NCBI GenBank assembly: GCA_964623955.1
Contig: CAZUVO010000005.1
Location: forward strand, 1-43,330
Length of the DNA stretch: 43,330 bases
Origin: an uncultured Rhizobiaceae bacterium
Lineage (GTDB): Bacteria; Pseudomonadota; Alphaproteobacteria; UBA828
Direction: 5' to 3'
Of this stretch, positions 1 to 42,399 are shown in pieces. A program made the position numbers and the translations under genes. Each line of letters starts with the position of its first letter. Position 1 is the stretch's first letter. The notes under the pieces are model-generated. The model saw only the letters and a program-made list of their open reading frames with translations. It made no database searches and had not been told where the DNA came from.

Positions 1-233
1 TGGCGCGCGAGCAGGTGAGTTTCGCGGCAACCCGGAAAGAGAAGATCGCCCGCATCGAGGCCCTCGCATGCGGCCATTTCATCGACGATCTCAGCGAAGT
101 GTTCGATCATCCGGAATTTCCCTCCGGCGTCGAGAAAATGCTGTTCGACCGAAGCCGCGCCGCGTCCGACCCGGCGACCGGCGCGTTCGCCAATTGGCAC
201 GACATGACGGATTATCTCCTTGGCGATGACTGA
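1..233 (+). CDS. 3' end of an unidentified CDS entering from upstream of the window
   Basis: The frame starting at nt 3 is open to TGA 231-233, and the listed ORF 15..233 is its tail. GC-rich third positions match the neighbours. The stop overlaps the next start (ATGACTGA). No recognisable motif. Confidence 0.35.
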   Translation, partial: AREQVSFAATRKEKIARIEALACGHFIDDLSEVFDHPEFPSGVEKMLFDRSRAASDPATGAFANWHDMTDYLLGDD

Positions 234-1296
234 ACCAGCCCTTGAGCCGGACGGCACGGCCGAAGCCGCGGCCGAGGCGGTGACGCGCTTGCTCGCGCTC
301 GATGTCACGGGCGTCCGCCGCATGGCCGGCGGCGGCAACAACAAGCTCTGCCGGGTCGAGACGCGGGCGGGAGAAACCCTCGTGACGAAGCATTATTTCC
401 GCCAGCCCTCGGACAATCGCGATCGTCTCGGCGCGGAATTCGACGGTCTGGATTTTCTGTGGCGGAACGGCGTGCGGCAGATCGCCCGGCCTCGCGCTTG
501 CGACCGGGAAAAGGGAATTGGCGTTTACGATCATGTCGCCGGCGAAGCCGCCGGCAACGTCGCGGCCTCCGCCGGCGATGTTCGCCAGGCGGTGCAGTTT
601 CTTGGCCGGCTCAAGGAGCTGACGAATTTGCTTGAGGCAGAGGCGCTGCCGGAAGCCTCGGAGGCCGGCTTCTCCCTCGACGCGCTGCTCGACATCTTGC
701 GCGGCCGGCTGGAGCGGCTCCGCGAGGTCGCACCGGATTCGCCACTGCAAAAAGAGTTCTGCGCTCTTCGCGACGAGCGGATCGCGCCGGCCCTGGAGCG
801 GATCGCGGAATCCGCCCGGTCGCGGCGGTCGGGGGACGGTCATCCGCCGGAGGCGCCCTTGGAGCCCGCCCGGAGAAATCTGAGCTCGTCGGATTTCGGG
901 TTTCACAACGCCATCCGCCGGCCCGATGGCGAGTTGATTTTCGTGGACTTCGAATATTTCGGTTGGGATGATCCGGCCAAGACGGTTTCGGATTTCCTGC
1001 TGCATCCGGCGATGGCGCTGGAGCCCGCGCGGGGTAAGGCGTTTGTCGCGGCCAGCCTGGAGGCGTTCGGCGATGACGATCTCGCCAACCGGCTGCGCGC
1101 CTATTTTCCCCTATTCGGGTTGAAATGGACGATGATTGTGCTGAACGAGTTTCTCCCCGGCGGTTGGAAGCGGCGTCTCTTCTCGGGCGCCGACGCCGAG
1201 AACGAAGAGGCGTATTTGCACGGGCAATTGCATAAGGCCACGGCATTTTTGGAGGGCGCGCTTCGCGCCGACGCGGAATTTCCCTATGGTGCGTAG
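226..1296 (+). CDS. Phosphotransferase-family (APH/choline-kinase-like) small-molecule kinase
   Basis: ORF 220..1296 (TTG 220 or ATG 226). The kinase catalytic segment 'SSDFGFHNAIRRPDGELIFVDFEYFGWDDP' is typical of the aminoglycoside/choline/homoserine-kinase-II fold. Its stop overlaps the next gene by 11 nt. Confidence 0.6.
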   Translation: MTEPALEPDGTAEAAAEAVTRLLALDVTGVRRMAGGGNNKLCRVETRAGETLVTKHYFRQPSDNRDRLGAEFDGLDFLWRNGVRQIARPRACDREKGIGVYDHVAGEAAGNVAASAGDVRQAVQFLGRLKELTNLLEAEALPEASEAGFSLDALLDILRGRLERLREVAPDSPLQKEFCALRDERIAPALERIAESARSRRSGDGHPPEAPLEPARRNLSSSDFGFHNAIRRPDGELIFVDFEYFGWDDPAKTVSDFLLHPAMALEPARGKAFVAASLEAFGDDDLANRLRAYFPLFGLKWTMIVLNEFLPGGWKRRLFSGADAENEEAYLHGQLHKATAFLEGALRADAEFPYGA

Positions 1297-2116
1297 CAAT
1301 TCGCAACTGCCGCTCGATGCCCGCTCGAAGGAGTTGCGGCGCATCGTGCTGCGCATGCTCGAAGCCGGCGACCGCGGTCATCTCGGCGCCGCCTTCTCCA
1401 TGGTCGAGATTTTCCGCGTGCTCTATGACGATGTGCTCAGCTATGAGAGCGCCGAGCCCGACTGGCCGGAGCGCGACCGCTGCATCCTCTCGAAGGGCCA
1501 TGGCTGTCTCGCGCTCTACGCCATCCTCGCCGACAAGGGCTTCTTCCCGGAGAGCGAGCTCGACAAGTTCTGCGCCGTCGACGGCATCCTCGGTGGCCAT
1601 CCCGATGCCGGCAAGGTGCCCGGCGTCGAGGCCTCGACCGGCGCGCTCGGCCACGGCGTCTCCATCGGCGTCGGCATGGCGCTTTCGGCGCGGCTCGACG
1701 GCTCCGGGCGGCGCGTCTATGTCGTCACCGGCGACGGCGAGATCAATGAGGGCGCGGTGTGGGAGGCGGCGATGAGCGCCGCCAAGCACCGCCTCGACAA
1801 TCTCACCGTGCTGGTCGATTACAACAAGCTGCAATCTTACGGCGCGACCAGCGAGGTGCTCGACCTTGAGCCCCTGGCCGACAAATGGGCGGCCTTCGGT
1901 TTCGCCGTCGCCGAGATCGACGGCCACAACGTCGGCGAATTGCAGGACGCGCTCGCGCCCAAGCCCTTCGCGCCCGACAAGCCGCTCGCGATCATCTGCC
2001 ATACCGTGAAGGGCCGCGGCGTCCATTTCGCCGAGAACAATCCCAAATGGCATCACCAAAGTAAGATCGGGCCCGACGGCATGAAGCGCCTGCATGACGG
2101 GCTGGACGCCGCCTGA
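1286..2116 (+). CDS. Transketolase, N-terminal (ThDP-binding) subunit of a split transketolase
   Basis: 'GHLGAAFSMVEI', 'SKGHGCLALYA', 'STGALGHG', and the ThDP motif 'VVTGDGEINEGAVWEAAMSAAKHRLDNLTVLVDYN'. At 276 aa it is the size of a split-type N subunit. Confidence 0.9.
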   Translation: MVRSNSQLPLDARSKELRRIVLRMLEAGDRGHLGAAFSMVEIFRVLYDDVLSYESAEPDWPERDRCILSKGHGCLALYAILADKGFFPESELDKFCAVDGILGGHPDAGKVPGVEASTGALGHGVSIGVGMALSARLDGSGRRVYVVTGDGEINEGAVWEAAMSAAKHRLDNLTVLVDYNKLQSYGATSEVLDLEPLADKWAAFGFAVAEIDGHNVGELQDALAPKPFAPDKPLAIICHTVKGRGVHFAENNPKWHHQSKIGPDGMKRLHDGLDAA

Positions 2117-3069
2117 TGCGCAAGACCAGCCTCAACCAGGTTTATGAGCATGCACTCAAGGACGAGCGCATCGTCTTCATCGGCTCCGATCTCGGCGCCG
2201 GCACCCTCGACGATTTCAAACGCGACATGCCCGAGCGTTTCTTCATGGAAGGCGTCAGCGAATCCCATATCGTCGGCATGGCGACCGGCCTCGCGATGGA
2301 CGGCAAGATCGTCTATGTCAACACCATCGCGACCTTCCTCACCCGGCGCTGCTTCGAGCAGCTGGTCAATGATGCCTGCCTGCACGAAGCCAAGGTGCGC
2401 CTCATCGCCAATGGCGGCGGGCTGGTCTACGCGCCTCTCGGCCCGACCCATTTGGCGACGGACGATATCGCCATCCTGCGCGCCATTCCCAATATGACCA
2501 TCGTGGCGCCGTCGGACGCCGAAGAGATGAAGCGCCTCATCCCGCAAACCATCGACTGGCCGGGCCCGCTCTATATCCGCCTGGCGAAAGGCGGCGACAA
2601 GGTGGTGAGCCGCGACGATCTGCCGTTCGAAATCGGCCGCGCCATCGAGCTGAGGCCGGGCGGCGATGTCACCCTGGTGACCACCGGCGTGACCTTGCAG
2701 GTCGCTCTCGATGCGGCGGCTCGGCTCGCGGGTGAAGGCATTGATGCCGGCGTGCTGCATATGCACACAATCAAGCCGCTCGACGCGGCGGCACTGATGG
2801 AGAGACTCTCGAAGGTGCCGGCCATGGTAACGATCGAGGAACATTCCCTGATGGGCGGGCTCGGCAGCGCGGTGGCGGAGCTGATCGCGGAATCCGACAT
2901 GGCGGTGAGTTTCCGCCGCATCGGCATCCCGGACGTCTTCCCCCATCAATATGGCCGCCAGGAGGATCTGATGCGCACTTACGGCATCACGCCGGAGAAC
3001 GTCGCGGCGGTGGCGGCGGATATGCTGGGCGCCGCGCCGCAAGCCGGCGCCAAGGCGGAAAGCGGCTAG
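2116..3069 (+). CDS. Transketolase, C-terminal (pyrimidine-binding) subunit
   Basis: 'RFFMEGVSESHIVGMATGLAMDGKIVYVNTIATFL', 'GPTHLATDDIAILRAIPNMTIVAPSD'. The ATG shares 1 nt with the upstream TGA (2114-2116). Confidence 0.9.
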   Translation: MRKTSLNQVYEHALKDERIVFIGSDLGAGTLDDFKRDMPERFFMEGVSESHIVGMATGLAMDGKIVYVNTIATFLTRRCFEQLVNDACLHEAKVRLIANGGGLVYAPLGPTHLATDDIAILRAIPNMTIVAPSDAEEMKRLIPQTIDWPGPLYIRLAKGGDKVVSRDDLPFEIGRAIELRPGGDVTLVTTGVTLQVALDAAARLAGEGIDAGVLHMHTIKPLDAAALMERLSKVPAMVTIEEHSLMGGLGSAVAELIAESDMAVSFRRIGIPDVFPHQYGRQEDLMRTYGITPENVAAVAADMLGAAPQAGAKAESG

Positions 3070-3077
3070 GCGGCGCC

Positions 3078-3914
3078 ATGACCTCCACCATTCTCACCGG
3101 TCTCGACGGCAATGCGTTTCTCTCGCCGGAGGAAATCGCGCTCTCGAAGCAGTTTATCGAGCAGGGCTATTGCATCATTCCCGTCGAGGACAAGGCGGGT
3201 CTCGACCGCATCCGTGGCGCCATCGCCGGGCTTGCGGCCGCCGGTCTGAAAGGCGATGCGCCGGCCGAACCCGGCGCTTATCTCAATGGCGTCCATGCGG
3301 AGATCGGGCCGGATGGGCTCAATGAATTCCGCCTCGCCATCATCCGCGACATCAACCGCGAGGACTGGCTGCGCCCGACTTATTTCGGCCTGGCGCGCGC
3401 CGCGCTGCAAGCCATCGTCGGCAACGAGCTGGCGATGCAGCGGCGCATCAATCTCAGCATTCAATTGCCCGGCGACGACGGCTCGCTGCTGCCGATTCAT
3501 TGCGATGTGTGGGCCGGCGATTCACCGTTCGAGGCGGTGTTGTGGCTGCCGCTGGTGGATTGCGCCGGGACCAAATCGATGTTCATCGTCCCGCCCGAGG
3601 CCAATGCGGAGATCCAATCCCGGCTCAACGAGTTCAGCACCCGCAGCAGCGAGGATCTGTTCGCCGAAGTGGCGCCGCATCTCGAATGGATCGACATCCG
3701 CTATGGCGAGGCGCTGCTGTTCAATCAGAATCTCATGCATGGCAATCGGATCAACGAGACCAATGAGACCCGCTGGAGCATGAATTGCCGCTTCAAGGGT
3801 GCGTTCACGCCCTATGCGGAAAAGAATCTCGGCGAGTTTTTCGAGCCCATTACCTTGCGCGCGGCATCGCGCATCGGTCTTTCCTACGAGCTGCCCGATG
3901 GCTTCGACAGCTAA
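3078..3914 (+). CDS. 2-oxoglutarate/Fe(II)-dependent oxygenase (PhyH-like), carbohydrate-cluster type
   Basis: Candidate facial triad: 'LLPIHCDVW' (HxD) plus distal His in 'NLMHGN'. A candidate 2OG-binding Arg lies in 'ETRWSMNCRF'. From memory it resembles proteins annotated as 'sporadic carbohydrate cluster 2OG-Fe(II) oxygenase'. Confidence 0.65.
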   Translation: MTSTILTGLDGNAFLSPEEIALSKQFIEQGYCIIPVEDKAGLDRIRGAIAGLAAAGLKGDAPAEPGAYLNGVHAEIGPDGLNEFRLAIIRDINREDWLRPTYFGLARAALQAIVGNELAMQRRINLSIQLPGDDGSLLPIHCDVWAGDSPFEAVLWLPLVDCAGTKSMFIVPPEANAEIQSRLNEFSTRSSEDLFAEVAPHLEWIDIRYGEALLFNQNLMHGNRINETNETRWSMNCRFKGAFTPYAEKNLGEFFEPITLRAASRIGLSYELPDGFDS

Positions 3915-4323
3915 ACGGTCCGGCTATCGCGGCTATATCGGCAGCCGGCCCTTTATGGGCGAGAACGCCACCCAGCAGGTGCAGAATATCGTCATCGTCA
4001 ATTATGCCGAGCGCGAGAAACTGCATTATCTGTTGAGCGCGACGGAATATGCCATGCCCGACTGCATGATGATGCTGGAACAGGTGATCGACGAGCTGCC
4101 GCAATTGGAGGGCGCGATCTGCTATTCCCTGTTCATGCTGCCGCGCCAGGCCGAACGCCGCCAGCGGGTCTATCAATCGGTTATCGATTCCGGAGCGGAG
4201 ATGCATTTTGCCGTCGAGCGCACGGTTCTCCGCCACGAAGAAGATATTCCCGGCATCGAAGCGCTCTGGCTCATGCGCCGCGCCCTGCCGCATTGTCCGA
4301 AGGAGCTGCCGGCATGGAACTGA
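3898..4323 (+). CDS. Small conserved protein of unknown function that accompanies carbohydrate clusters
   Basis: In-frame ATG at 3898 within ORF 3799..4323, a 17-nt overlap with the upstream gene. The N-terminus 'GYRGYIGSRPFMGENATQQVQNIVIVNYAEREKL' resembles, from memory, the 'sporadic carbohydrate cluster protein' family. No catalytic motif recognised. Confidence 0.45.
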   Translation: MASTAKRSGYRGYIGSRPFMGENATQQVQNIVIVNYAEREKLHYLLSATEYAMPDCMMMLEQVIDELPQLEGAICYSLFMLPRQAERRQRVYQSVIDSGAEMHFAVERTVLRHEEDIPGIEALWLMRRALPHCPKELPAWN

Positions 4324-4979
4324 TCGATTTCGTCGGCCCGGTGCACCGCAGCACCGCGCGCGATTACGTCGCCCGGGTGACCGAGCATGACAAGGCGGAA
4401 TGCGCCACGATCGCCAAGCGCTTCGACAAGGACTATTGGGACGGTGCGCGGCATTTCGGCTATGGCGGCTATTCCTATGACGGGCGCTGGCGCCCGGTGG
4501 CCGAGCGCATGGCCGAGCATTACGGCCTCAAGGCCGGCGACCGCGTGCTCGATGTCGGCTGCGGCAAGGCCTATATGCTCTATGAGCTGACCCAGGCGGT
4601 GCCCGGGCTCGAAGTGGCGGGCGTCGATATTTCCGAATATGGCCTCGCCAACGCCAAGGAAGAGGTGCGCGACCATCTGCAGCTCGCCGGCGCGACCGAG
4701 CTGCCCTTCGCCGACGGCGCGTTCGACATGGCTTTCTCGCTCGCCACCTTTCACAATTTCTATGTCTTCGACGCCATCCAGGCGCTGCGCGAAATCCAGC
4801 GCGTCTGCCCGGGGCCGAAGAAATATGTCATGGTCGAGTCCTATCGCAACGAGCGCGAGAAGGCGAACCTGCTCTATTGGCAGCTCACCTGCGAAAGCTT
4901 CTTCACCCCTGACGAATGGAAATGGTGCTTCGATCAGGCCGGATATGATGGCGATTACGGCTTCATCTATTTCGAATAG
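4314..4979 (+). CDS. Class I SAM-dependent methyltransferase
   Basis: Motif I 'VLDVGCGKAYMLYEL', then 'VAGVDISEYGL' and 'LPFADGAFDMAFS'. The start is ATG 4314 (ATGGAACTGA overlap); 4293 is an alternative. Confidence 0.8.
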   Translation: MELIDFVGPVHRSTARDYVARVTEHDKAECATIAKRFDKDYWDGARHFGYGGYSYDGRWRPVAERMAEHYGLKAGDRVLDVGCGKAYMLYELTQAVPGLEVAGVDISEYGLANAKEEVRDHLQLAGATELPFADGAFDMAFSLATFHNFYVFDAIQALREIQRVCPGPKKYVMVESYRNEREKANLLYWQLTCESFFTPDEWKWCFDQAGYDGDYGFIYFE

Positions 4980-4988
4980 GCCCGGCCG

Positions 4989-5921
4989 ATGACCGCGCCG
5001 CAAGCCGCCGGCGATCTGCTCGTGCTCGGCGGCTCGAGTTATGTCGGCCGGCATCTGTTGCCGCGGCTGGTGGCCGGCCGCCATGTCGCGACCTATGCCG
5101 CGAATCCGTTTCCGGGCGGGGAGCATTTCGATTGCGCCGCAATGCGCCTCGCGGATTCAGGGATCGGCGATCTCGCGCGCTTCGACAGCGCGCTTCTCCT
5201 GCTCGGCGATACGGAGCCCAATTCCTGCGTGCGCGATCCGGCGCGCTCGCAGGCGGTCAATGTCGATGGCATCAAAGCGGTGATCGACGACCTCGCCGCC
5301 GCCGGGGTGCGGCCGGTCTTCGTTTCGAGCGAATTCCTGTTCGACGGGCGCGGCGGGCCCTATAGCGAATCCGATCCGCCCAATCCGATTCTTCTCTATG
5401 GCAGGCAAAAGCTCGAGATCGAGCGCCATCTTGAAGCGGTGCTGGAGGATTACGCCATCCTGCGCCTGGCCAAGGTCTATGGCGAGACGCCGGGCGACGG
5501 TACCTTGTTCACCAATTGGCTGGCGCCGGTCGCCGAGGGTGGCCATCTCAAATGCGCGAGCGATCAGTTTTTCTCGCCGATCTTCGTCGATGATGTGGTC
5601 GATGCCCTGCTATTGGCGGCGGACCGCCGCATTCGCGGCACGTTCCACCTCGGCGGCCCGCAAAGGCTGAGCCGCATGGCCTGCCTGCAGGCGCTGATCG
5701 ATGCGGCCAGCGCGCTGCGGCCGGTCGATCTCGCGATCGAGCCCTGCGGGATCAATGATTTCGATTTTCCCGAGGACCGCCCGCTCGATGTCAGCCTGCG
5801 GATCGACAAGCTCGCCGGTGCGGTGGATTTCCGTCCGCTCGACGTCGCGGCGTTCTGCCGCCGCCTCGCCGCCGCTCATTTTGGCGCCGGTAACGCGCGG
5901 GCGAGCGGGGCGCCGGCATGA
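4989..5921 (+). CDS. NAD(P)-dependent SDR, RmlD-like sugar 4-ketoreductase/epimerase family
   Basis: Rossmann start 'LLVLGGSSYVGRHL'. Catalytic YxxxK in 'LYGRQKLEIE'. 'FHLGGPQRLSRMACL' is typical of the RmlD substrate-binding domain. Confidence 0.65.
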   Translation: MTAPQAAGDLLVLGGSSYVGRHLLPRLVAGRHVATYAANPFPGGEHFDCAAMRLADSGIGDLARFDSALLLLGDTEPNSCVRDPARSQAVNVDGIKAVIDDLAAAGVRPVFVSSEFLFDGRGGPYSESDPPNPILLYGRQKLEIERHLEAVLEDYAILRLAKVYGETPGDGTLFTNWLAPVAEGGHLKCASDQFFSPIFVDDVVDALLLAADRRIRGTFHLGGPQRLSRMACLQALIDAASALRPVDLAIEPCGINDFDFPEDRPLDVSLRIDKLAGAVDFRPLDVAAFCRRLAAAHFGAGNARASGAPA

Positions 5922-6472
5922 AACTCTCCGCCATATCCCTGCTGGCGCCGGATGCGGCGAAGCTGCGCGAGGACACCGGCGCGAAATCGGTCTCCTTCTT
6001 CTGTATCGAGCGGCCGGTGCGCATCGATCGGCTGCTGCTCGACGAGATGAAACAGGTCTCCGCCCAGCGCGGCGGGCGCAATGTGCGCATCTGCCTCCAT
6101 AGCGCGCCGGAGGACGATCACCACGACATGGTCGTGCTTGAGCGCAGCGGCAATTACTACCGCCCGCACAAACATGCGGCGAAGGGCGAGTGTTTCCATG
6201 TGATGGACGGCAAACTCGGCCTGCTGGCCTTCGACGAAGCCGGCCAGGTGGTCGACGCGGCGGTGCTCGAAGCCGGCGAGGTCTACCGCATCGCCGTCGG
6301 CATGTATCACGCGGTGATGCCGATGAGCGACCCGGTGATCTATCATGAATCGAAGCCCGGCCCTTTTCTCGGCGAGGGCGATAGCATATACCCCGATTGG
6401 GCGCCGCCCGAGGAAGACGAAGACGCGGTGGCGGCGTTCAACAAGATGGCGCGAGCCAATCTTACGGACTGA
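5918..6472 (+). CDS. WbuC-family cupin-fold protein
   Basis: 'NVRICLHSAPEDDHHDMVVLERSGNYYRPHKHAAKGECFHVMDGKLGLLAFDEAG' matches the WbuC cupin pattern as I recall it. ATGA overlap with the upstream SDR. Confidence 0.6.
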   Translation: MKLSAISLLAPDAAKLREDTGAKSVSFFCIERPVRIDRLLLDEMKQVSAQRGGRNVRICLHSAPEDDHHDMVVLERSGNYYRPHKHAAKGECFHVMDGKLGLLAFDEAGQVVDAAVLEAGEVYRIAVGMYHAVMPMSDPVIYHESKPGPFLGEGDSIYPDWAPPEEDEDAVAAFNKMARANLTD

Positions 6473-6488
6473 GCGGAAAAACAGGCGT

Positions 6489-7529
6489 ATGAGCATGGCA
6501 ATCGAAATCGCGGGGCGAAAAATCGGCGCGGGCCATCCGGTCTTCATCGTCGCCGAAGCCTGCGACAATCATCTCGGCAATACGGAGGCGGCGCGCGAGA
6601 TGATCACCCGGGCGCATGCCGCCGGCGCGGATGCGGTCAAGTTTCAGCATCACCTGCCGGACGAGGAAATGCTGCCGGACGCGCCCATGTCGGACAATTT
6701 CGAAGAGCCGCTCTACGAGTTTCTCAAGAAATACGCCCTCACCCTCGATCAGCACCGCGAGCTCAAATCCTTCTGCGAGGAGACCGGCATTCTCTATATG
6801 TGCACGCCCTTTAGCTACGCCGCGGCCGAGGAGCTGAACAGTCTCGGCGTCTCCGCCTACAAGATCGGCTCCGGCGAGATGACCGACGTGCCCTCGCTCG
6901 AGCGGATCGCCGATTTCGGCCAGCCAATGATCGTCTCCACCGGCATGTGCACCCTCGATGAGATCGAGCGCACCTACCGCGCCGTGGTCGCGCGCAACCC
7001 GGCGCTCGCGCTCTTGAACTGCGTGAGCGAATATCCGCCGGCCTATGAGGATATCAATCTCGACGTTATCACCGTCATGCGGGAGCGTTTTCCCGAGGCG
7101 GTGATCGGCCATTCCGACCACACGCCGGATCTCTTCACCTGCTTCGCCGCCGTCACCCTGGGCGCGGCGATCATCGAAAAGCATGTCATCCTCGATAAGG
7201 CGCAGCCCGGGCCGGATCAGTCGGTGTCGATCGATTTCGACGACCTCGCCACCCTCGTCGACGGCATCCGTAAGATCGAGGCGGCGCGCGGCGACAGCCG
7301 TGAAGTGCACGGCTTGGAGCAGCCGATCCGCACCTGGGCCTTCCGCAGCCTGGTGACCACGCGCGCGGTGAAAAGCGGCGAAGTGATTTCCGAGGACATG
7401 ATCTGGTCGAAACGGCCGGGCACAGGCATTCCGTCGCACCGCATGGCCGAGGTGATCGGCCGCCGCGCCGCCCGCGATCTCGGCGAGAATATCCTTCTCA
7501 GCTGGGACGATTTCGAATCCGCCTCATGA
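6489..7529 (+). CDS. neuB: N-acetylneuraminate (nonulosonate) synthase family, NeuB/LegI/PseI-like
   Basis: The true start is ATG 6489 ('MSMAIEIAGRKIGAGHPVFIVAEACDNHLGN'). Also 'AGADAVKFQHH', 'YKIGSGEMTD', and a C-terminal SAF-like domain 'RAVKSGEVISEDMIWSKRPGTGI'. Confidence 0.9.
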   Translation: MSMAIEIAGRKIGAGHPVFIVAEACDNHLGNTEAAREMITRAHAAGADAVKFQHHLPDEEMLPDAPMSDNFEEPLYEFLKKYALTLDQHRELKSFCEETGILYMCTPFSYAAAEELNSLGVSAYKIGSGEMTDVPSLERIADFGQPMIVSTGMCTLDEIERTYRAVVARNPALALLNCVSEYPPAYEDINLDVITVMRERFPEAVIGHSDHTPDLFTCFAAVTLGAAIIEKHVILDKAQPGPDQSVSIDFDDLATLVDGIRKIEAARGDSREVHGLEQPIRTWAFRSLVTTRAVKSGEVISEDMIWSKRPGTGIPSHRMAEVIGRRAARDLGENILLSWDDFESAS

Positions 7530-14714: not shown

Positions 14715-16018
14715 GGGAGGGAACGCTCTCCATCCTCCATTTCTCGACGGCGGATATTCTCGGCGGCTCGGCAAAGGCGGCCCTGCGCATTCATCATGGC
14801 CTCGCCGCGGAGGGTCACCGCTCGCGCATGCTGGTGCGCCACAAGCAAACCGACGACGAGACGATCGAGAGCATCTGGCCGCGCGGCCCGGCCCGCCTGT
14901 GGGACCGCGCCTGGGAGGCCTTTTCGACCCGCAGCGGGCTGCAATATGCTTACGTGCCCGCTTCAGCCCGGGCGTTGCGTCACCGCTGGGTGAGCGAGGC
15001 GGATATCATTCAGCTCTACAATATTCATGGCGGATATCTCTCGCCCGCCGCGCTGCCGCGCTTGTCGCGCCAGGCGCCGCTGGTGTGGCGGCTCTCGGAC
15101 ATCTGGCCGGCGACCGGACATTGCGCCTATTCGGGCGATTGCGAGCGTTGGCGGGAGGGCTGCGGCCAGTGCCCCGATCTCGGCGCCTATCCGCCGGTGC
15201 GCCGCGATGCGACCGCGTTTCTCTGGCGCCGCAAGCGGGCGGCCTATGGCAAGAGCGATATCACCCTCGTCGCGCCGTCGAGCTGGATGGAAGGCATCGT
15301 TCGCGCCAGCCCCTTGCTGCGGGATTTCCCCTGCGAGCGCATCGCCACCGGCGTCGATGCGGCGCTGTTCAACATGGCCGAGGCCGACGCCGCCCGCGCC
15401 GCCGCCCGGGCCGAGTTGAATATTGCCGAGGACACCACCGTCATTTTGTTTGCCGCCCATATTCTCGATGCGAATCCGCGTAAGGGCGGGCAGCATCTTC
15501 GGGCCGCGCTCAACTTGCTGGGGCCGATGCCGAATTGCGTGCTGCTTCTCGCCGGCGTCGGTGGCGAAAGCTGGCGGGGCGCGCAGCCGCTCGAGCTTCG
15601 TCTCGCCGGCTACCGTGCGGCGCCCGGCGATATGGCGAAAATCTATGCCGCCGCCGATTTCTCCGTCACCCCCTCGCTCGATGAAAACCTCGCCAATTCG
15701 GTGCTCGAATCCATGGCCTGCGGCCGTCCCGTTGTCGCCTTCGATGCCGGCGGCACGCGCGACGCGGTACACCACATGGAAACCGGCTACCTCGCCGCCG
15801 CCGGAGACGATGCGGCGCTGGCCGAGGGGATCAAACAGTTCGTGGACTCCGGGCCATTGCGTCAGCGGATCGGCCGGGCCGGCGGCGATCTCATTTCCCG
15901 CGAATTCGGCCTGACTCGCCAAATCGAGCGGCTCAACAACCTCTATCATGACATCCTGGCGCGGCGGCGAAACACCGGCCCGGCGTCTTCGGCCCTATCG
16001 GCGCAGAGCCATGTCTAG
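14711..16018 (+). CDS. Glycosyltransferase family 4 (GT-B)
   Basis: GTG 14711 (GTGA overlap). 'LSILHFSTADILGGSAKAA'. EX7E motif in 'DENLANSVLESMACGRPVVAFDAGG'. Internal 4-Cys cluster at 15122-15172. Confidence 0.85.
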   Translation: MREGTLSILHFSTADILGGSAKAALRIHHGLAAEGHRSRMLVRHKQTDDETIESIWPRGPARLWDRAWEAFSTRSGLQYAYVPASARALRHRWVSEADIIQLYNIHGGYLSPAALPRLSRQAPLVWRLSDIWPATGHCAYSGDCERWREGCGQCPDLGAYPPVRRDATAFLWRRKRAAYGKSDITLVAPSSWMEGIVRASPLLRDFPCERIATGVDAALFNMAEADAARAAARAELNIAEDTTVILFAAHILDANPRKGGQHLRAALNLLGPMPNCVLLLAGVGGESWRGAQPLELRLAGYRAAPGDMAKIYAAADFSVTPSLDENLANSVLESMACGRPVVAFDAGGTRDAVHHMETGYLAAAGDDAALAEGIKQFVDSGPLRQRIGRAGGDLISREFGLTRQIERLNNLYHDILARRRNTGPASSALSAQSHV

Positions 16019-16087
16019 CGACCAAGCCGCAAACCCCTTGCCGGCGCGTGGGCCCCGCGTCGCGCTCCTGGCACAAGCGAGAATTCA

Positions 16088-17680
16088 ATGTCGCAAATAG
16101 CTGATCTATTGGAGGCGTATTACAGAATCGGGCAGCGGAGGTCCGAATCGCCCACTGCGCTATTTCCGTCCCAGAGATCCGATGTATCGCAAGAACTAAA
16201 CCGGCTTTGGGGAAAATATTCTCAGGAATTAAAAATTCTTTCGGATCATTTGGGCACGCAATATAAAAAGAAGATGCCCCAGGGTTTGTCGGGAGGATGC
16301 GGTGATCTGGAAGGGGAATTGCTGTATATATTGATTCGGAAATTGAAGCCTGAACTCATTTATGAGATATCGCCAAATACGGGATTTTCGACGAATTATT
16401 TACTTGCAGCGGTTACGGAAAATAAGTCAGGCCGGATAGAGGGGTTTGAAATAATTGAAGAAATAGATGGCGTATCGATAAATGAAATTGTATATGGGAA
16501 ATTATTACCGATATGCGACAAAGAGAGATATCACCTTAATGTCGGAGACGCTCGAATCAACTCGCTAGAACGTATTACACAGCAAGCGCCGGATTTTACT
16601 TTGATCGATTCCTGCCATGACGATTTTTTTGCAGAATTTTATGTGAAGGAATTATTTCCTCGCTGCTGCGGAACAATTGTCATGCAGGATATTGCTCACT
16701 TCGATCCGCGGCCGGAATGGTCGACAGAAGCCTATTATGTTCTTTCCTATTTGCAAAAAACCGCCAGCGAGTATCTGTTGTTCGGCGACTATGAAGATGC
16801 GTTGTTTAACAATAGCGCTCGCGACGAATTCTCCGTTCGCCGCCCCTGCAGAAGCAATTGCATCGTCGTCTCGCTCGGCGACGCGCCGGTGACGTCGGAG
16901 CCGGCGGAAAGATTTCTCGGCTATCTAAGTGGCGAGTCGGAGCCGGGCGATGGCATGGCGTCCGCATACCCTCTGACTTTCGAAATTCTTGGGGGAACGT
17001 TGCGCCGATCGTTCCCGTCGGAAGATGCACGGCCCGAGGACGATTATGTCGCCGCGATGACGGCCGATCAGTGGCGCGCCGGCAGCCCGGCATTCGCGGA
17101 TATGCTCGCTCTCTCGCTGGGCCGAACGTCACTGAAGGGGGCGCCTCCGGGAGAATTGGCCCAGGCGGCGCAATCCTTCGATGCCACCCAGCGCGTATTG
17201 GCGCTCGAAGCTTTGGCACGCGCGGGCGCGCGGGACGATATGAAGACGATCCTCTCCACGGTCGAGAATGACCCGCCGCGCGGGGGTGAGTTGCACCTGC
17301 GCATCGCGGAGACCGCATTGCGGCTCGGGTATCGTGCCGAGGCCGAGCGTTGGGCGGAGCGGGCGCATGAGAATTCGAAGGATTTAAGCCTGGCGGTCGG
17401 TTATCGTCATTCGATGCAGGCGGCGCGCATATTGTTGCGTTTGGGCCAAGCGGCGAGGGCGCGCAGTTTTTTCAGAGAAGCGCTGGAAGGATTGACCCGG
17501 CGCCATGACGACGTCATGGCGAAGGCCAGCGCGGAGGCTTTTGCGATCGCGCTGCGCCATCCCGTCTTTCTGCCCATCGCTCTCGGATCCGGCATCGATA
17601 AAGGCGCTATCATGGTGGCGGCGAAATCCCTTATCCGATCGATTGCGCGAAAGGTCGCGAGAAAAATTCTTGCCGCATGA
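16088..17680 (+). CDS. Fusion protein: N-terminal class I SAM methyltransferase-like domain (Methyltransf_24/CmcI-like) plus C-terminal Ala/Arg-rich helical-repeat (TPR-like) domain
   Basis: 'LIYEISPNTGFSTNYLLAAVTENKSGRIEGFEI' and 'LIDSCHDDFFAEFYVKELFPRCCGTIVMQDI'. C-terminal part: 'LRIAETALRLGYRAEAERWAERAHE...LLRLGQAARARSFFREALE'. Base composition switches from AT-rich to GC-rich near 16850. Confidence 0.55.
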   Translation: MSQIADLLEAYYRIGQRRSESPTALFPSQRSDVSQELNRLWGKYSQELKILSDHLGTQYKKKMPQGLSGGCGDLEGELLYILIRKLKPELIYEISPNTGFSTNYLLAAVTENKSGRIEGFEIIEEIDGVSINEIVYGKLLPICDKERYHLNVGDARINSLERITQQAPDFTLIDSCHDDFFAEFYVKELFPRCCGTIVMQDIAHFDPRPEWSTEAYYVLSYLQKTASEYLLFGDYEDALFNNSARDEFSVRRPCRSNCIVVSLGDAPVTSEPAERFLGYLSGESEPGDGMASAYPLTFEILGGTLRRSFPSEDARPEDDYVAAMTADQWRAGSPAFADMLALSLGRTSLKGAPPGELAQAAQSFDATQRVLALEALARAGARDDMKTILSTVENDPPRGGELHLRIAETALRLGYRAEAERWAERAHENSKDLSLAVGYRHSMQAARILLRLGQAARARSFFREALEGLTRRHDDVMAKASAEAFAIALRHPVFLPIALGSGIDKGAIMVAAKSLIRSIARKVARKILAA

Positions 17681-17729
17681 GAAGCTTCCGGCGACGAACC
17701 GTCGAAGACCAACTTAAATATAGGGGTAC

Positions 17730-17760
17730 GGGCTAAGGTTCCGGCTACGGAATTTAGCCC
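17730..17760 (+). terminator. Stable hairpin 50 nt after the fusion gene stop (terminator-like, no U-tract)
   Basis: GGGCTAAGGTTCCG-GCTA-CGGAATTTAGCCC forms 7 bp, a G.U pair and 5 bp with one bulged G and a 4-nt loop. Confidence 0.3.
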
Positions 17761-17805
17761 AACAATAAATTCGGCCAGTTGTTACGTTTTCTTGAGGTTA
17801 AACAA

Positions 17806-18783
17806 ATGCCAAGAAGAATAATTGGATATTTAAAACTTAAGATATCCCAGAGTTCGTATAAATTTCTTACCGGATTGGCCCGCCAGCAAAAGATAAAAGC
17901 ATTGGCGCCTTCTTTCTTACGCAAGTTTGTTTCTAAACACATTGTCAAAAAAGTGGTCGATATTTACGATCGCGAGCGGCTGCTGCAACGGGTCGACGAG
18001 AAGACAATTTTGCTCGCCGATTACCCACGCTGCGGCATCGCATGGGTGCGTTTCACCATGGCGACGGTCTTGCATTACCGTACGAATAATGAATTCCGAA
18101 AATTGACGTTTCCGGAATTGGGAAGTTATTGTCCCACTATTCACAGCCATGGCGAGTTCGACCCTATTTATTTTAATGACGGGGTCAGCTTCATAAGGAC
18201 CCATTCGCACTATTATCCGGAATATCGCCGCGCGATCATGATTTATAGAGATCCGTTCGAGGCGATCAAATCGCTTCATACCCATGAAAGCTATACCCTT
18301 GACGATGTTGATTTTGAGCTGTCCTACGTGTCCAGGCGGGAGGGGCATGTGCTTTCGGGTGAAAAATATGAAGGCTTGTCGGAGGACGAATCATTTCTCG
18401 TCTATTGGAGCAACCAGTATGTGATTCATCATGAAACATGGATTACGGCAATTAACCCACGCCCGGACGATTTTCTGATTGTCAAATATGAGGATATGCT
18501 TGAGCGGTGCGCCGACCTACTGCCTGCCATGATTTCGTTTTCGGGGCTTGACCAGCCGCCTTTGACGCAAGATCAGATATCCACGCTTGCCGGCATGTAC
18601 ACCCGGCGCCACGCCAATTGGAGATCGGATGACGATATCGCCTATCGCGACAAGAATTTTCACCGGCTTGAGAACATCATGTGTCTCAGCGAATTGGAGC
18701 GATTAAATCAGGGCCTTGCACGCCGGATCGAGAATATTTTCGCGCAACTTGACGCGCTGCGCCATCGGCCGCGGCAGGGCTGA
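17806..18783 (+). CDS. Sulfotransferase-like protein, paralogue 1
   Basis: 5'-PSB-like loop 'YPRCGIAW' (cf. PKSGTTW). 3'-PB-like 'IRTHSH...IMIYRDPFEAIKSL' (cf. RNPxDxxxS). 'VKYEDMLERCADLLPAMISFSGL' (cf. YEDL....FLG). AT-rich codon usage. Confidence 0.6.
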   Translation: MPRRIIGYLKLKISQSSYKFLTGLARQQKIKALAPSFLRKFVSKHIVKKVVDIYDRERLLQRVDEKTILLADYPRCGIAWVRFTMATVLHYRTNNEFRKLTFPELGSYCPTIHSHGEFDPIYFNDGVSFIRTHSHYYPEYRRAIMIYRDPFEAIKSLHTHESYTLDDVDFELSYVSRREGHVLSGEKYEGLSEDESFLVYWSNQYVIHHETWITAINPRPDDFLIVKYEDMLERCADLLPAMISFSGLDQPPLTQDQISTLAGMYTRRHANWRSDDDIAYRDKNFHRLENIMCLSELERLNQGLARRIENIFAQLDALRHRPRQG

Positions 18784-18839
18784 CAATCGCGGAACCTATC
18801 GTATGGCAGTCGAAGCAACGTGAAAGCCCGGCAGGTAGA

Positions 18840-19841
18840 ATGATAAGGTTTCTCATACGCGGCATTACCAGGCGTCTCTATTTCCTCCTCATGAGGGCCG
18901 CCCATCAACAGAGGTTGAAGGCCGCGGCGCCCCGGTTTGTGCGCAAATTTATTTCGCGCATTGTCGTCAGGGCCGTCGTCGACACCTATGACCGCGAGCG
19001 GCGGCTGCAGCGGGTGGATGACGACACCATATTGCTGGCTGATTTTCGCCGCTGCGGCGTGGCGTGGTTGCGATTTGTCCTGACCACCGTGTTGCACTAT
19101 CGCGCCACGGGGGAATTCCGCAAACTTGCGCATCAGGAGTTGGAAAACTACTGCGCCACGATTCATGGCCACGAGAAGTTTTCCCCTTATTACTTCAACG
19201 ACGGCACTTCTTTTCTAAAAACCCATTCTCATTTTTATCCTGAATTCCGCCGGGCGATCATGATTTATCGTAACTCTTATGAGGCGATAAAATCGCTTTA
19301 TACCCAAGAGAGCTACACGCTAAACAATATTTCCCAAATGTATAATTTTGACCTGTTTCGCGGCACGGACCGCGAGAAAGTGCCGCTATCGGGTGACAAA
19401 TATGAAGGCCTTTCGGTGGATGAATCATTTCTGGTCTATTGGTCGGCGGAATATGTCAGGCATCACGAGACCTGGCTCGCGGCGATTCGAGAGCGTCCCG
19501 ACGATTTTCTCGTGTTCAAATATGAAGACATGCTCGACAATTGCGCGGCGCTTCTGCCGGCAATGATTTCCTTTGCAAAATTGGATGCGCCGCCTCTGAC
19601 CGGGGAGCAAATATCGGCGCTTGCCGGCATGTATACGAGAAAATACAGCAATTGGCCGAAGGACGAAGACTTGAGCTATCGCGACAATAAATTTTCCGAA
19701 CTTGAAAACGTTATCAGCCCGCGCGAATTAAACCGTCTCAACGCAGCACTTGCGCGGCGCATCGAAGAAATCCATGCCGAGCTCGACGATGTGCGGCAGC
19801 CGATAATGGCCTGTTCCCCGGCGATGACCGCGCAACATTGA
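18840..19841 (+). CDS. Sulfotransferase-like protein, paralogue 2 (tandem duplicate)
   Basis: Collinear with paralogue 1 over nearly the full length: 'FRRCGVAW', 'LKTHSH...IMIYRNSYEAIKSL', 'FKYEDMLDNCAALLPAMISFAKL'. By eye roughly 60% identical. Confidence 0.6.
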   Translation: MIRFLIRGITRRLYFLLMRAAHQQRLKAAAPRFVRKFISRIVVRAVVDTYDRERRLQRVDDDTILLADFRRCGVAWLRFVLTTVLHYRATGEFRKLAHQELENYCATIHGHEKFSPYYFNDGTSFLKTHSHFYPEFRRAIMIYRNSYEAIKSLYTQESYTLNNISQMYNFDLFRGTDREKVPLSGDKYEGLSVDESFLVYWSAEYVRHHETWLAAIRERPDDFLVFKYEDMLDNCAALLPAMISFAKLDAPPLTGEQISALAGMYTRKYSNWPKDEDLSYRDNKFSELENVISPRELNRLNAALARRIEEIHAELDDVRQPIMACSPAMTAQH

Positions 19842-19880
19842 TGGCCCAACGCAATCTCTGACGACTATCCCAGAATTCTC

Positions 19881-21185
19881 GTGCTGGCGCGCATGCCCTT
19901 CAACACGCAGGACGGCACGGGCATCGCCTTGAGTGCGCTCTTTCACGGCTGGCCGAAAGACCGCATCGCCCAACTCTGCGGCGAAGGTGCTATTGCCATG
20001 GCGGACAGAAACATCTGCGAAACCTATTACGGGCTGGGCGCGGCGGAGTTGCGCCGGGCCTGGCCGCTTAGACTGCGCGATGCCTTGCGCGGCAAGCCGG
20101 CGGCGGGCGCTCCCGGCGGCACGGCTCCCCCGGGCGGCGGCGCCGCTCAATCCGGACCGGCGGCGGCGTTCCGGCGCTATCTCCATGGGCGCGGCTGGCT
20201 CTATCCGGTCGATTCGCGCCTCAGTGCCGGCTTGCAGCGGTTTCTCAACGCGTTCTCGCCCGATCTGATCTATGCCGCGCCGGCGGAATTCGCCATGGTC
20301 CGCCTCACCCGGCAAATCGGCTGCCATCTCGGCGCGCCGGTCGCCGTGCAAGTATGGGACAATTGGATGAGCATGCATTACCGCAAGGGCGCCGGCGCCG
20401 CGGGTAAACGCCGCCGGCTCGACGCCGAGCTCCGCGCCCTCTTTGGCGAGGCGGCGCTCCGTTTCGGCATCAGCGAGCCCATGTGCGACGCTTATGGAAC
20501 GGCCTATGGCCAGCCCTTTCTGCCGCTTCCGGTCTCTGTCGATGTTGCCGAATGGCACCGCCAGTTCGCCGAGCGCGGCGCGCCGGGCGAGCCCTTCACC
20601 ATTCTCTATGCCGGAACGATTCACCAACACGCCGCCTATGCCGGCCTTGCGGATATGAGCCGCGCGGTGGAGGCGCTGAATGCGGCGGGCCTCGCGGCGC
20701 GCTTCAAGATCCTCGCCGCGTCCCCACCGCCTGCCGGGCAGATATCCGAGCTCGGCGGCCGGTTCACCGAATTCGCGACCGCCGCCGGCCGCACGGAACT
20801 TATCGCCGAGACCGGCGCCGCCGATCTTCTCTTTCTGCCGGTCGCGTTCGACGCCGAGAGCCGCGACCTCATCAAATATTCCCTGCCGGCGAAGAGCGCC
20901 GCCTATATGGCGAGCGGCACGCCGATACTGGTCTACGCCCCTGCCGACCTGCCGATCGCTATTGAGGCGGCACGCCACGGCATCGCCCATGCGGTTACCG
21001 AGCGGGATATCGGCCACCTGGCGGAAGGCGTGCGTCATATGCTGAGCGATCGAGCGGCGCGTGCCGCGGTCTCCGAAGCGGCGCTTCGCCGCGCCCGCGA
21101 GGCTTACGACCGGCCCGTGCTGCAGGAATGCACCCGCCGGCTCTTCGCGGACGCCATTTCGCACCAACAGGGCACCGGCGTCTGA
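19881..21185 (+). CDS. GT-B-fold glycosyltransferase-like protein
   Basis: The C-terminal half, 'FTILYAGTI...LLFLPVAFDAESRDLIKYSLPAKSAAYMASGTPILVYAP', resembles GT4-like donor-binding domains. GTG start. High GC. Confidence 0.5.
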   Translation: MLARMPFNTQDGTGIALSALFHGWPKDRIAQLCGEGAIAMADRNICETYYGLGAAELRRAWPLRLRDALRGKPAAGAPGGTAPPGGGAAQSGPAAAFRRYLHGRGWLYPVDSRLSAGLQRFLNAFSPDLIYAAPAEFAMVRLTRQIGCHLGAPVAVQVWDNWMSMHYRKGAGAAGKRRRLDAELRALFGEAALRFGISEPMCDAYGTAYGQPFLPLPVSVDVAEWHRQFAERGAPGEPFTILYAGTIHQHAAYAGLADMSRAVEALNAAGLAARFKILAASPPPAGQISELGGRFTEFATAAGRTELIAETGAADLLFLPVAFDAESRDLIKYSLPAKSAAYMASGTPILVYAPADLPIAIEAARHGIAHAVTERDIGHLAEGVRHMLSDRAARAAVSEAALRRAREAYDRPVLQECTRRLFADAISHQQGTGV

Positions 21186-24470: not shown

Positions 24471-25436
24471 ATGACAGAAGATAATTACGGCCTCCCGCCC
24501 GAGCGGCTCATCGCGCTCTATAGATCCGTCGTTCGGATTCGCCGGGTGGAAGAGGAAACCGCCAAAATCTATCCGAGCGATCTGGTCAAAAGCCCCATTC
24601 ATTTGTCGATCGGCCAGGAGGCGGTGTCCGTCGGCGTGTGCGATATTCTCGAGCCCGAGGATATCGCTTACGGGACCTATCGCGGGCACGCGCTTTATCT
24701 CGCCAAGGGCGGCGACCTGAAGGCGATGGTCGCGGAATTGTTCGGCCGTGAAACAGGCTGCGCCGGCGGCAAGGCGGGTTCCATGCACCTGGTCGATCCC
24801 GCCGCCAATGTGATGGGCATGTCGGCCATCGTCGCCACCCATATACCGCTCGCGGTGGGCCACGCCTTCGCCGTCAAGTCGAGGGGTCTGGCGGCGATCG
24901 TGGTTTGCTTTTTCGGCGAAGGCGCCGCCGACGAGGGCGCGTTTCACGAAGCGATGAATTTCGCCGCCCTGAAAAACCTGCCGCTGCTGTTCGTCTGCGA
25001 AAACAATCGGCTGGCCATCCATTCGCCGGCCGAGGACAGAATGGCGGGCCCGGGATTGGCGGCGCGGTTTTCATCCTACGGTGTCGCGGGGCGCAACATC
25101 GACGACGAGAACATTTTCTCGATCCGCGCCGCCGCCGAAGACCTGGTGGGTGAGATTCGCGGCGGCGGCGGCCCGCGCTATCTCGAATGCAGAACCTCCC
25201 GCTGGCGCGAGCATGTCGGCCCGGCGGAGGATTGGGATGCGGCTTACCGCGACGCGGCGGAAGAGCGCGCGCGGTCGGCCAAGGATCCGGTGGCGTTTCT
25301 CGCCGCGCTGTTGGATGCCGAGACGCGGGCGGCCCTGGACAGCGAAATCGCGGCGGAAATAAGCGAGGCCTTTAAATTGGCCGAGGCCGCGCCCTATCCG
25401 CCGGCGGACGCGTTGAACCATCATGTGTTCGGATAG
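24471..25436 (+). CDS. ThDP-dependent 2-oxoacid dehydrogenase E1 component, alpha subunit-like
   Basis: 'SPIHLSIGQEAVSVG', 'GKAGSMH', and the ThDP motif 'FFGEGAADEGAFHEAMNFAALKNLPLLFVCENN' (GEG in place of the usual GDG). Confidence 0.85.
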   Translation: MTEDNYGLPPERLIALYRSVVRIRRVEEETAKIYPSDLVKSPIHLSIGQEAVSVGVCDILEPEDIAYGTYRGHALYLAKGGDLKAMVAELFGRETGCAGGKAGSMHLVDPAANVMGMSAIVATHIPLAVGHAFAVKSRGLAAIVVCFFGEGAADEGAFHEAMNFAALKNLPLLFVCENNRLAIHSPAEDRMAGPGLAARFSSYGVAGRNIDDENIFSIRAAAEDLVGEIRGGGGPRYLECRTSRWREHVGPAEDWDAAYRDAAEERARSAKDPVAFLAALLDAETRAALDSEIAAEISEAFKLAEAAPYPPADALNHHVFG

Positions 25437-26487
25437 TTCCGCCGTGCGCGAGATCACCTACGGCCAAGCCCTGTTCGAGGCGACGCGCCAGGAAATGGCG
25501 CGCGACGATAGCGTCTTCGTGTTCGGCCAAGGGGTCGACGACCATAAGGGCCATTACGGCACCACGCTCAACCTGCACCGGGAATTCGGCGCCGAGCGCT
25601 GCTTCGACACGCCGCTCGCCGAGGACGCGATGACCGGCATGGCGGTGGGTGCCGCGCTTGCCGGCATGCGGCCGATCCATGTCCATCAGCGCATGGATTT
25701 CCTGCTGCTGTGCATGAACCAGCTCATCAATATGGCGGCGAAATTCTCCTATATGTTCAACGGAACCTACCGCGTGCCGCTGGTCGTCCGCGCCTCCATC
25801 GGGCGAAGCTGGGGGCAGGGGCCGCAGCATTCGCAGGCCCTGCATGCCATGTTCATGCATGTGCCCGGCTTGAAAGTCGTCGCGCCGACCACGGCGCATG
25901 ATGCCAAGGGCTGCCTCACAGCGGCGATCCGCGACAACAACCCGGTCGTCTTTATCGAGCATCGCATGCTCTATGGGCTGTCGGGTCATGTCGCGGAAGA
26001 GAGCTACGAAATCCCCTTCGGGCAGGCGCGCCGATTGACCGAGGGCGGTGATATCACCATCGTTGCGATCAGCCATATGGCGGTCGAGGCGCTGCGCGCG
26101 AGACACCATCTGCAATCCGTCGGAATATCCGCCGAAATCATCGATCCGGTCAGCCTCAGCCCGATCGATTGGGATACCATCCTGACGTCGGTGGAAAAGA
26201 CCGGGAGACTGCTGGTTGTCGACAATGGCTGGCTCAGTTGCGGCGCCTCGGCGGAAATCGTCGCGGAGACCGTCGAACGGCTGCAGGGCAGACGCGGCAT
26301 CACCGTCGGCCGGATGGGCTTTTCGCCATCGCCCTGCCCGACAACGCGGCCGCTTGAGCGCCTGTTTTATCCCAATGACCGGACCATCGCCGCGCGCGCC
26401 CACCGGCTGGTGAAGGGTGGCGACGAGTCCTGGATGCCGGCGGGCGGCGACTCCGCGGAAATCACGGAATTTCGCGGGCCGTTTTGA
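25423..26487 (+). CDS. ThDP-dependent 2-oxoacid dehydrogenase E1 component, beta subunit-like
   Basis: 'ITYGQALFEATRQEMARDDSVFVFGQGV', 'RCFDTPLAEDAMTGMAVGAALAGMRPI', 'PGLKVVAPTTAHDAKG'. 14-nt overlap with the alpha subunit. Confidence 0.85.
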   Translation: MCSDSSAVREITYGQALFEATRQEMARDDSVFVFGQGVDDHKGHYGTTLNLHREFGAERCFDTPLAEDAMTGMAVGAALAGMRPIHVHQRMDFLLLCMNQLINMAAKFSYMFNGTYRVPLVVRASIGRSWGQGPQHSQALHAMFMHVPGLKVVAPTTAHDAKGCLTAAIRDNNPVVFIEHRMLYGLSGHVAEESYEIPFGQARRLTEGGDITIVAISHMAVEALRARHHLQSVGISAEIIDPVSLSPIDWDTILTSVEKTGRLLVVDNGWLSCGASAEIVAETVERLQGRRGITVGRMGFSPSPCPTTRPLERLFYPNDRTIAARAHRLVKGGDESWMPAGGDSAEITEFRGPF

Positions 26488-36001: not shown

Positions 36002-36051
36002 CTCGACCGTACCATGGCTATCTGTCGCATAACCTGAAGAGAATCCGTTCC

Positions 36052-37125: not shown

Positions 37126-37197
37126 TCCGACATTGCAAGAGTTTCTCTTCCAAATCATCGATAAATGAACAAAATGACTTCAATTGGTAATAAGTAA

Positions 37198-38559: not shown

Positions 38560-38722
38560 ACATAATTACAGAATCAGAGATGTGTTTCTCTCGAACGACA
38601 CCGTGAAAGAGGGACTAAAACTCATATAACCACTGATAGAATCAGAGCGATAATCACGAAATTATTTGGAACCGGGTGTCGTTACGCAACGAGAAAAATC
38701 GGCATAGCTCTTTTGGATAATC

Positions 38723-42253: not shown

Positions 42254-42399
42254 GCCACGGTTGGGACAACAAGCTGCGGACCGAGTTCCGTACCGGTCAA
42301 ATGGGACCGTGACAACCCAGTGGCCATTGATCCCATCGCCCAGGGACGCAAATACGGGAAAATTCCGGCCTTGACCGGCCCGTCACCACTTGATCGCCT

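Follow-up and report, generated by a model that had tools for sequence, protein, structure and literature searches.

What a small-molecule kinase and a transketolase divided over two subunits do at the head of a surface glycan locus is the question raised by the DNA analysed here, referred to as the window: a stretch of 43,330 nucleotides from an uncultured Rhizobiaceae bacterium (assembly GCA_964623955.1, contig CAZUVO010000005.1). An earlier note, made from the letters alone, had placed these genes at the start of a nonulosonic acid operon, and had suggested that the transketolase pair supplies a C2 unit, or lengthens or shortens a sugar chain, for the nonulosonate or for a heptose pathway. 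We find that both the kinase and the split transketolase belong to the core of a sugar cassette that is widespread and uncharacterised. A literature search found no paper describing such a combination of HAD phosphatase, kinase and split transketolase. The likely product is an unusual higher sugar, nucleotide-activated and destined for the cell surface, and the cassette probably serves neither the sialic acid genes next to it nor central metabolism.

The positions and overlaps of the kinase and of the two transketolase subunits (hereafter TK-N and TK-C) were confirmed by a check of the open reading frames, and a fourth coupled gene, missed in the earlier note, was found upstream of the kinase. 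The window is one whole contig whose start cuts this gene, so that it begins in the middle of the cassette. The coupled genes are the following:

3 to 233, forward strand: 3′ end of a HAD-fold phosphatase gene (76 codons, the full protein having about 211 amino acids), assigned by reading frame, motifs and structure model.
226 to 1296, forward strand: small-molecule kinase of the APH/choline-kinase fold, 356 amino acids, assigned by homologues, invariant residues and structure model.
1286 to 2116, forward strand: transketolase-like N subunit, TK-N (domain binding the diphosphate of thiamine diphosphate, ThDP), 276 amino acids, assigned by PF00456.
2116 to 3069, forward strand: transketolase-like C subunit, TK-C (pyrimidine-binding and C-terminal domains), 317 amino acids, with a remodelled substrate pocket, assigned by PF02779 and PF02780.

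The phosphatase stop codon (TGA, 231-233) overlaps the kinase start (ATG at 226; ATGACTGA). The kinase ends with TAG at 1294-1296, 11 nucleotides being shared with TK-N, whose ATG is at 1286, and the TK-N stop (TGA, 2114-2116) shares a single nucleotide with the TK-C ATG at 2116 (TGATG). TK-C ends with TAG at 3067-3069, and the next ATG is found at 3078.

The mapping of co-occurring genes, which had been put forward as a check of the earlier note, was carried out by using an alignment of kinase homologues to scan genomes, each species being represented by one. At least 598 pattern matches were obtained, at least 571 were confirmed, and 80 loci were kept. They span at least 17 phyla, including DPANN archaea (Woesearchaeota, Nanoarchaeia). 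Partners were counted as genes within 10 kb of the kinase in these 80 species-level loci:

HAD phosphatase: 76 of 80 loci.
TK-N: 75 of 80.
TK-C: 71 of 80.
Methyltransferase: 64 of 80.
Conserved extended short-chain dehydrogenase/reductase (SDR), called SDR2: about 58 of 80.
Reversed HldE-like protein: 56 of 80.
GmhA-like isomerase: 37 of 80.
Zn-dependent alcohol dehydrogenase: 31 of 80.
Pair of 2-oxoglutarate (2OG) oxygenase and LIC12192-family protein: 17 of 80.
GmhB-like phosphatase: 15 of 80.
NeuB: 4 of 80.

The conserved partners of the kinase are the HAD phosphatase, both transketolase subunits, the methyltransferase and paralogues of heptose-pathway enzymes. The core order is HAD phosphatase, kinase, TK-N and TK-C, the methyltransferase usually coming after; the window fits this order, with its methyltransferase displaced by the oxygenase/LIC12192 pair. 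This pair and the Zn-dependent alcohol dehydrogenase both lie after the transketolase and are never found together (Fisher p = 1.2e-4), and this mutual exclusion makes it look as if the cassette exists in two chemical variants. Natural fusions were also encountered, of the HAD phosphatase with the kinase (558 amino acids), of the kinase with TK-N (about 625 to 643 amino acids; 24 protein clusters with transketolase-N Pfam domains), and of all three (855 amino acids), which argues that the phosphatase, kinase and transketolase activities work together. Among the carriers are plasmid pCW1 of a cultured cyanobacterium, Crocosphaera watsonii WH 8501 (locus L077), and a metagenome-assembled genome (MAG) labelled Klebsiella pneumoniae (locus L049), whose binning may be doubtful.

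This distribution bears directly on the supposed link with the nonulosonate genes, which did not hold: since NeuB lies nearby in so few loci, its adjacency here is local and not a conserved association. As the earlier note had seen, the trio of kinase, TK-N and TK-C runs directly into the oxygenase, methyltransferase, neuB, neuC and neuA genes, and the same is true of an 81%-identical relative; this arrangement would suit a role of the pair as donor of a C2 glycolyl unit to the adjacent nonulosonate, from which a sialic acid with an N-glycolyl or hydroxyacetyl group would arise by a quinocarcin-like reaction. NeuB, NeuC and NeuA alone suffice, however, for CMP-Neu5Ac. In the systems that inspired this reading, NapB/NapD/NapC and QncN/L/M, a two-component transketolase loads a C2 unit taken from a ketose phosphate on an acyl carrier protein (ACP), and NapD/DinS has 754 amino acids (PMC7570522). 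A two-component transketolase is common to these systems and the cassette; the dedicated ACP, the long second subunit and the non-ribosomal peptide synthetase setting that they need are all missing here. No ACP gene was found in the window, the sole PF00550 match of the genome being on contig C24, and TK-C, at 317 amino acids, holds the Transket_pyr and Transketolase_C domains only, with no lipoyl or E2-type extension. A route of the quinocarcin/naphthyridinomycin type was rejected on the absence of an ACP from the window and on the short TK-C, and we consider a glycolyl donor role for the sialic acid genes very improbable.

We turn now to the proteins of the core. The APH-like label of the kinase needed testing, since the window protein itself gave no match in Pfam or NCBIfam, even at E=10. 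It was borne out by the homologues, PF01636 being present in most of more than 2900 of them; by an AlphaFold model (pLDDT, the predicted local distance difference test, 92), which matches APH(9)-Ia, LicA and choline kinases, with a Foldseek probability of 1.0 to APH(9)-Ia and LicA; and by the invariance among homologues of the catalytic Asp223 and Asn228 and of the metal-binding Asp241. We conclude that, by its model, the window kinase belongs to the APH fold. In the HAD phosphatase, the DxDxT, Ser, Lys and DD motifs are intact and invariant. Its model (pLDDT 96) has a C1-capped HAD fold, closest to deoxyribonucleotidase-like and other HAD enzymes of small substrates, and the C1 cap is as in phosphatases of small phosphoesters.

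That the next two genes encode a two-subunit transketolase was confirmed: TK-N matches PF00456 (8e-45), and TK-C matches PF02779 (7e-29) and PF02780 (9e-29). Scores with the transketolase equivalog models were nevertheless below cut-off, 249.5 bits for the N half and 194.9 for the C half against 488 with NF004559, and 150 and 44.6 bits against 682 with TIGR00232. The active site was read by alignment to the canonical transketolase (Tkt) of the same genome and to the split transketolase of Carboxydothermus hydrogenoformans (PDB 6YAK/6YAJ). Residues that bind ThDP and its metal or take part in catalysis are retained (His26, His66, His100, His261, His473, Glu411 and GDG...N), and so are the conserved motifs GHLG, SKGHG, GGHP, GDGE..NEG, DYNK, KWHH, GVSES and GPTH. 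Residues are numbered as in E. coli TktA. The residues that bind the sugar phosphate or the acceptor have a different fate, Arg358 being the only one kept among Arg358, Ser385, His461, Asp469 and Arg520. His461 is replaced by Gly, Asp469, which reads the 2-OH of the acceptor, by Leu, Ser385 by Gly in a shortened loop, and Arg520 by Lys. The signature GGxVYAPLGPTH together with RLxKG is at least 95% conserved in TK-C of 70 family members, and the window protein carries it as NGGGLVYAPLGPTH and YIRLAKGG. Set against canonical transketolase (EC 2.2.1.1), the pair agrees in cofactor and catalytic residues, and departs from it in substrate residues and in equivalog scores. We infer from this alignment that the split enzyme would still form glycolaldehyde-ThDP, and would not handle ordinary aldose phosphates. 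Since the residues holding glycolaldehyde-ThDP are intact, a C2 transfer extending or branching a sugar is plausible.

The C. hydrogenoformans enzyme, which is active, is the best solved match of the pair (3.5e-75 and 7.6e-60) and has the same two-subunit build and the same ThDP and catalytic residues; at the four pocket positions it keeps the canonical His, Asp, Ser and Arg, which in the window pair have become Gly, Leu, Gly and Lys. This difference is relevant to a simpler reading, a dedicated supply of ordinary sedoheptulose-7-phosphate to heptose modules. In its favour, the pair adjoins heptose-pathway paralogues, the window contains a GDP-heptose-like module further on, and the cassette is also found in DPANN archaea of reduced metabolism. 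The four substrate residues that the canonical Tkt and the C. hydrogenoformans enzyme have in common are, however, replaced throughout the family; a canonical Tkt is already present in the genome; and the fused kinase and phosphatase are left unexplained. With its sugar-phosphate pocket remodelled, the pair is improbable as a source of sedoheptulose-7-phosphate.

The canonical housekeeping Tkt was found at C137:9570-10118 and C119:7-1407, which cover positions 2-186 and 189-652 of TIGR00232; it is a gene broken by the assembly across two contig ends, and not a split gene. A second split pair is encoded at C31:23016-24883 (reverse strand; loci L087 and L089). The earlier note had asked whether the window pair might be the only transketolase of the organism, and this was rejected given the canonical Tkt and the C31 pair. 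Its proposal of a dedicated, non-housekeeping transketolase in a glycan locus, plausibly able to transfer a C2 unit, stands on the presence of these other enzymes and on the intact residues; the nonulosonate as its partner is not supported. The C31 pair also lacks equivalents of His461 and Asp469 ('AAASGISLGVSGGTH'). It adjoins SMP-30/gluconolactonase-like and DSBA-like genes, and is not in a glycan locus.

Identities of the cassette subunits are 54 to 72% across phyla, and only 51% and 39% with the C31 pair of the same genome. In a quick tree of TK-C, the cassette sequences came together as a single clade (SH-aLRT 98), which a long branch sets off from both paralogues of the genome. Within the tree, the window TK-C and that of a Rhizobiaceae relative belong to a well-supported clade whose members come mostly from other phyla, away from most other alphaproteobacterial loci of the oxygenase type. 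This placement suggests that the cassette is a mosaic or was acquired by horizontal transfer.

Another contig, C231, which abuts the start of the window, carries the missing upstream genes of the cassette; it breaks off within the HAD gene, whose remainder opens the window. On the reverse strand, C231 carries a reversed HldE-like gene, two extended SDR genes, and residues 1-131 of the HAD phosphatase (396-4). These genes are 81 to 92% identical to those of a Rhizobiaceae MAG locus (L081), where the whole set is contiguous; for the HldE-like and SDR genes the identity is 88 to 92%. The families around the core are those of the ADP-L-glycero-beta-D-manno-heptose pathway (GmhA, HldE, GmhB, HldD), with clear departures from it. 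In HldE itself the kinase comes first and the adenylyltransferase second, whereas in the cassette protein the order is swapped, with an N-terminal nucleotidyltransferase and a C-terminal PfkB kinase, and its scores (112.8 bits against 345, 111.8 against 181.5) are far below the cut-offs, as are all those of the heptose-like enzymes. The canonical pathway moreover has no transketolase, APH-fold kinase or methyltransferase, all of which the cassette has. GmhA-like proteins of the cassette were below cut-off in 9 of 9 cases (69 to 123 bits against 209), which is weak evidence since true GmhA proteins of other phyla also missed the cut-off in control genomes. Replacement of the reversed HldE by an activation of the HddA/HddC type was considered and rejected: 5 loci had matches, and all 5 also have the reversed HldE. 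The only GmhA-like isomerase of the genome is encoded at C13:5353-5805 (reverse strand; 103 bits, below cut-off; locus L091). Its neighbours there are genes for a HAD hydrolase, an SDR and a GFO/IDH/MocA oxidoreductase, so that another sugar module may be present.

From these elements a route can be proposed. The split transketolase would hand its glycolaldehyde-ThDP unit to a non-standard aldehyde acceptor, the kinase adding and the phosphatase removing a phosphate handle, and the product would be a non-standard higher ketose phosphate (modified heptulose or octulose). The heptose-like enzymes would then isomerise, 1-phosphorylate, dephosphorylate and nucleotide-activate this ketose phosphate, after the logic of the GDP-octose line of lincomycin, and tailoring would be the task of the SDRs, the oxygenase/LIC12192 pair, the methyltransferase, the RmlD-like reductase and the cupin. 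The polysaccharide would thereby receive a second sugar, distinct from the CMP-sialic acid that the downstream NeuB, NeuC and NeuA make.

In lincomycin biosynthesis, GDP-octose is made by the successive action of the transaldolase LmbR, the isomerase LmbN, the kinase LmbP, the phosphatase LmbK and the guanylyltransferase LmbO (PMC4351081). Octulose-8-phosphate is made by plant transketolases (PMC5854111), and the split transketolase AziC5/C6 of azinomycin lengthens a non-phosphorylated aldehyde by two carbons (PMC9570651). These precedents support the logic of the route. As in the lincomycin line, a C-C enzyme of pentose-phosphate type heads a set of heptose-pathway paralogues making a nucleotide-activated higher-carbon sugar. 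They differ in the C-C enzyme, a transaldolase (C3) in lincomycin as against a split transketolase (C2) in the cassette. In the cassette, moreover, activation would fall to a domain-swapped HldE-like fusion, and an APH-fold kinase is present in addition; and while the lincomycin line belongs to an actinomycete antibiotic cluster, the cassette is found across many phyla in loci for surface glycans. Our preferred reading, in which the pair transfers C2 to a non-standard acceptor and thereby supplies a heptose-like line of activation comparable to that of lincomycin, is a tentative proposal, possible and somewhat short of probable.

Several observations weigh against it. A GmhA-like gene is missing from the cassette of this genome. 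The HAD phosphatase occurs together with a GmhB-like phosphatase in 15 loci, and is for that reason not simply a substitute for GmhB. Genes typical of tailoring at the level of the nucleoside diphosphate (NDP)-sugar go with the cassette, namely the highly conserved extended SDR immediately before the core and the DegT, RmlD-like and radical-SAM accessories. Finally, as far as the alignment tells, an acceptor that is bulky and bears a nucleotide could explain the missing phosphate-binding residues just as well.

The last points lead to the main rival, in which tailoring follows activation: the heptose-like enzymes would produce an ordinary NDP-heptose, an SDR would oxidise it to a keto- or aldehydo-sugar, and the transketolase would put a hydroxyacetyl (C2) group on the new carbonyl. 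The nucleotide sugar obtained would be branched or longer in its chain, with kinase and phosphatase running a transient phosphorylation cycle. The extended SDR directly upstream of the core (58 of 80 loci, 50 to 74% identity) would provide the oxidation, the DegT, radical-SAM, RmlD-like and WbuC accessories are of the kind that tailors NDP-keto sugars, and the pocket is widened by the His to Gly change and the shortened Ser385 loop and has lost Asp469. The joint presence of GmhB-like and HAD phosphatases in the 15 loci fits as well, and an addition of hydroxyacetyl to a keto sugar by split transketolases has been proposed in miharamycin and amipurimycin (PMC12247030). This precedent was, however, never demonstrated in vitro; the same 2025 review of ThDP enzymes treats sugar branching of the transketolase type as an uncharacterised proposal, restricted to a few Streptomyces antibiotics (PMC12247030). 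In addition, transketolases have a narrow funnel, and TK-N shares about 55% identity with a split enzyme that is ordinary and active. The C1-capped HAD phosphatase points to a small phosphoester, and not to an NDP-sugar phosphate; we know of no precedent for a phosphorylated NDP-heptose intermediate. Branching after activation is, in our opinion, rather unlikely.

By their description, and not by sequence, AziC5/C6 and the Mih/Apm enzymes of miharamycin and amipurimycin resemble the window pair as split transketolases with a non-standard acceptor, a non-phosphorylated aldehyde for the former and a keto sugar, proposed and unproven, for the latter. They differ from it in that they belong to Streptomyces antibiotic clusters, and in that no fused kinase or phosphatase is mentioned for them in the texts consulted. 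For the cassette, it is nearly an even question whether it makes a yet-undescribed class of nucleotide-activated C8/C9 or C2-branched sugars, by means of a re-tooled transketolase complexed or fused with its own kinase and phosphatase. If so, the surface glycans of hundreds of species in at least 17 phyla, DPANN archaea included, would contain such sugars, and glycan chemistry would so far have missed both a sugar of very wide distribution and a transketolase specificity that is new. To our knowledge, the ThDP enzymes known to remodel sugars of surface glycans are all of the YerE type. The changes in the pocket resemble those engineered into E. coli transketolase for non-phosphorylated or non-hydroxylated aldehydes, so that the natural cassette enzymes could be useful biocatalysts.

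Downstream of TK-C, the window carries the accessory genes of the cassette:

3078 to 3914, forward strand: TIGR04324 'sporadic carbohydrate cluster' 2OG-Fe(II) oxygenase (312.6 bits, cut-off 150), accessory of one cassette variant (17 of 80 loci).
3898 to 4323, forward strand: LIC12192-family small protein (TIGR04323; 139.5 bits, cut-off 55), its start inferred from a homologue of 141 amino acids in locus L081.
4293 to 4979, forward strand: class I S-adenosylmethionine methyltransferase of the cassette (64 of 80 loci), in most loci directly after TK-C.
4989 to 5921, forward strand: RmlD-like reductase, a frequent accessory (20 of 80 loci).
5918 to 6472, forward strand: WbuC-family cupin, a frequent accessory (24 of 80 loci).

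The oxygenase and LIC12192 genes are adjacent, overlapping at about 3898-3914, and both score above the curated cut-offs. The NeuB reading frame (6345-7529) starts 48 codons before the start used by the homologue of 346 amino acids in L081, and this extension overlaps the cupin gene; judged from that homologue, the true start probably lies near 6489. Further along, the second ThDP pair reported in the earlier note, at 24471-26487, was identified as an alpha/beta pair of pyruvate dehydrogenase E1 type (276 and 289 bits). The locus of the window probably encodes at least three unusual sugars, namely the cassette product, a sialic acid and an E1-branched heptose. Its G+C content falls to about 0.52 in 16000-20000 and to 0.42-0.49 in 36000-43330, against 0.62-0.68 elsewhere, and these two stretches look like separately acquired inserts.

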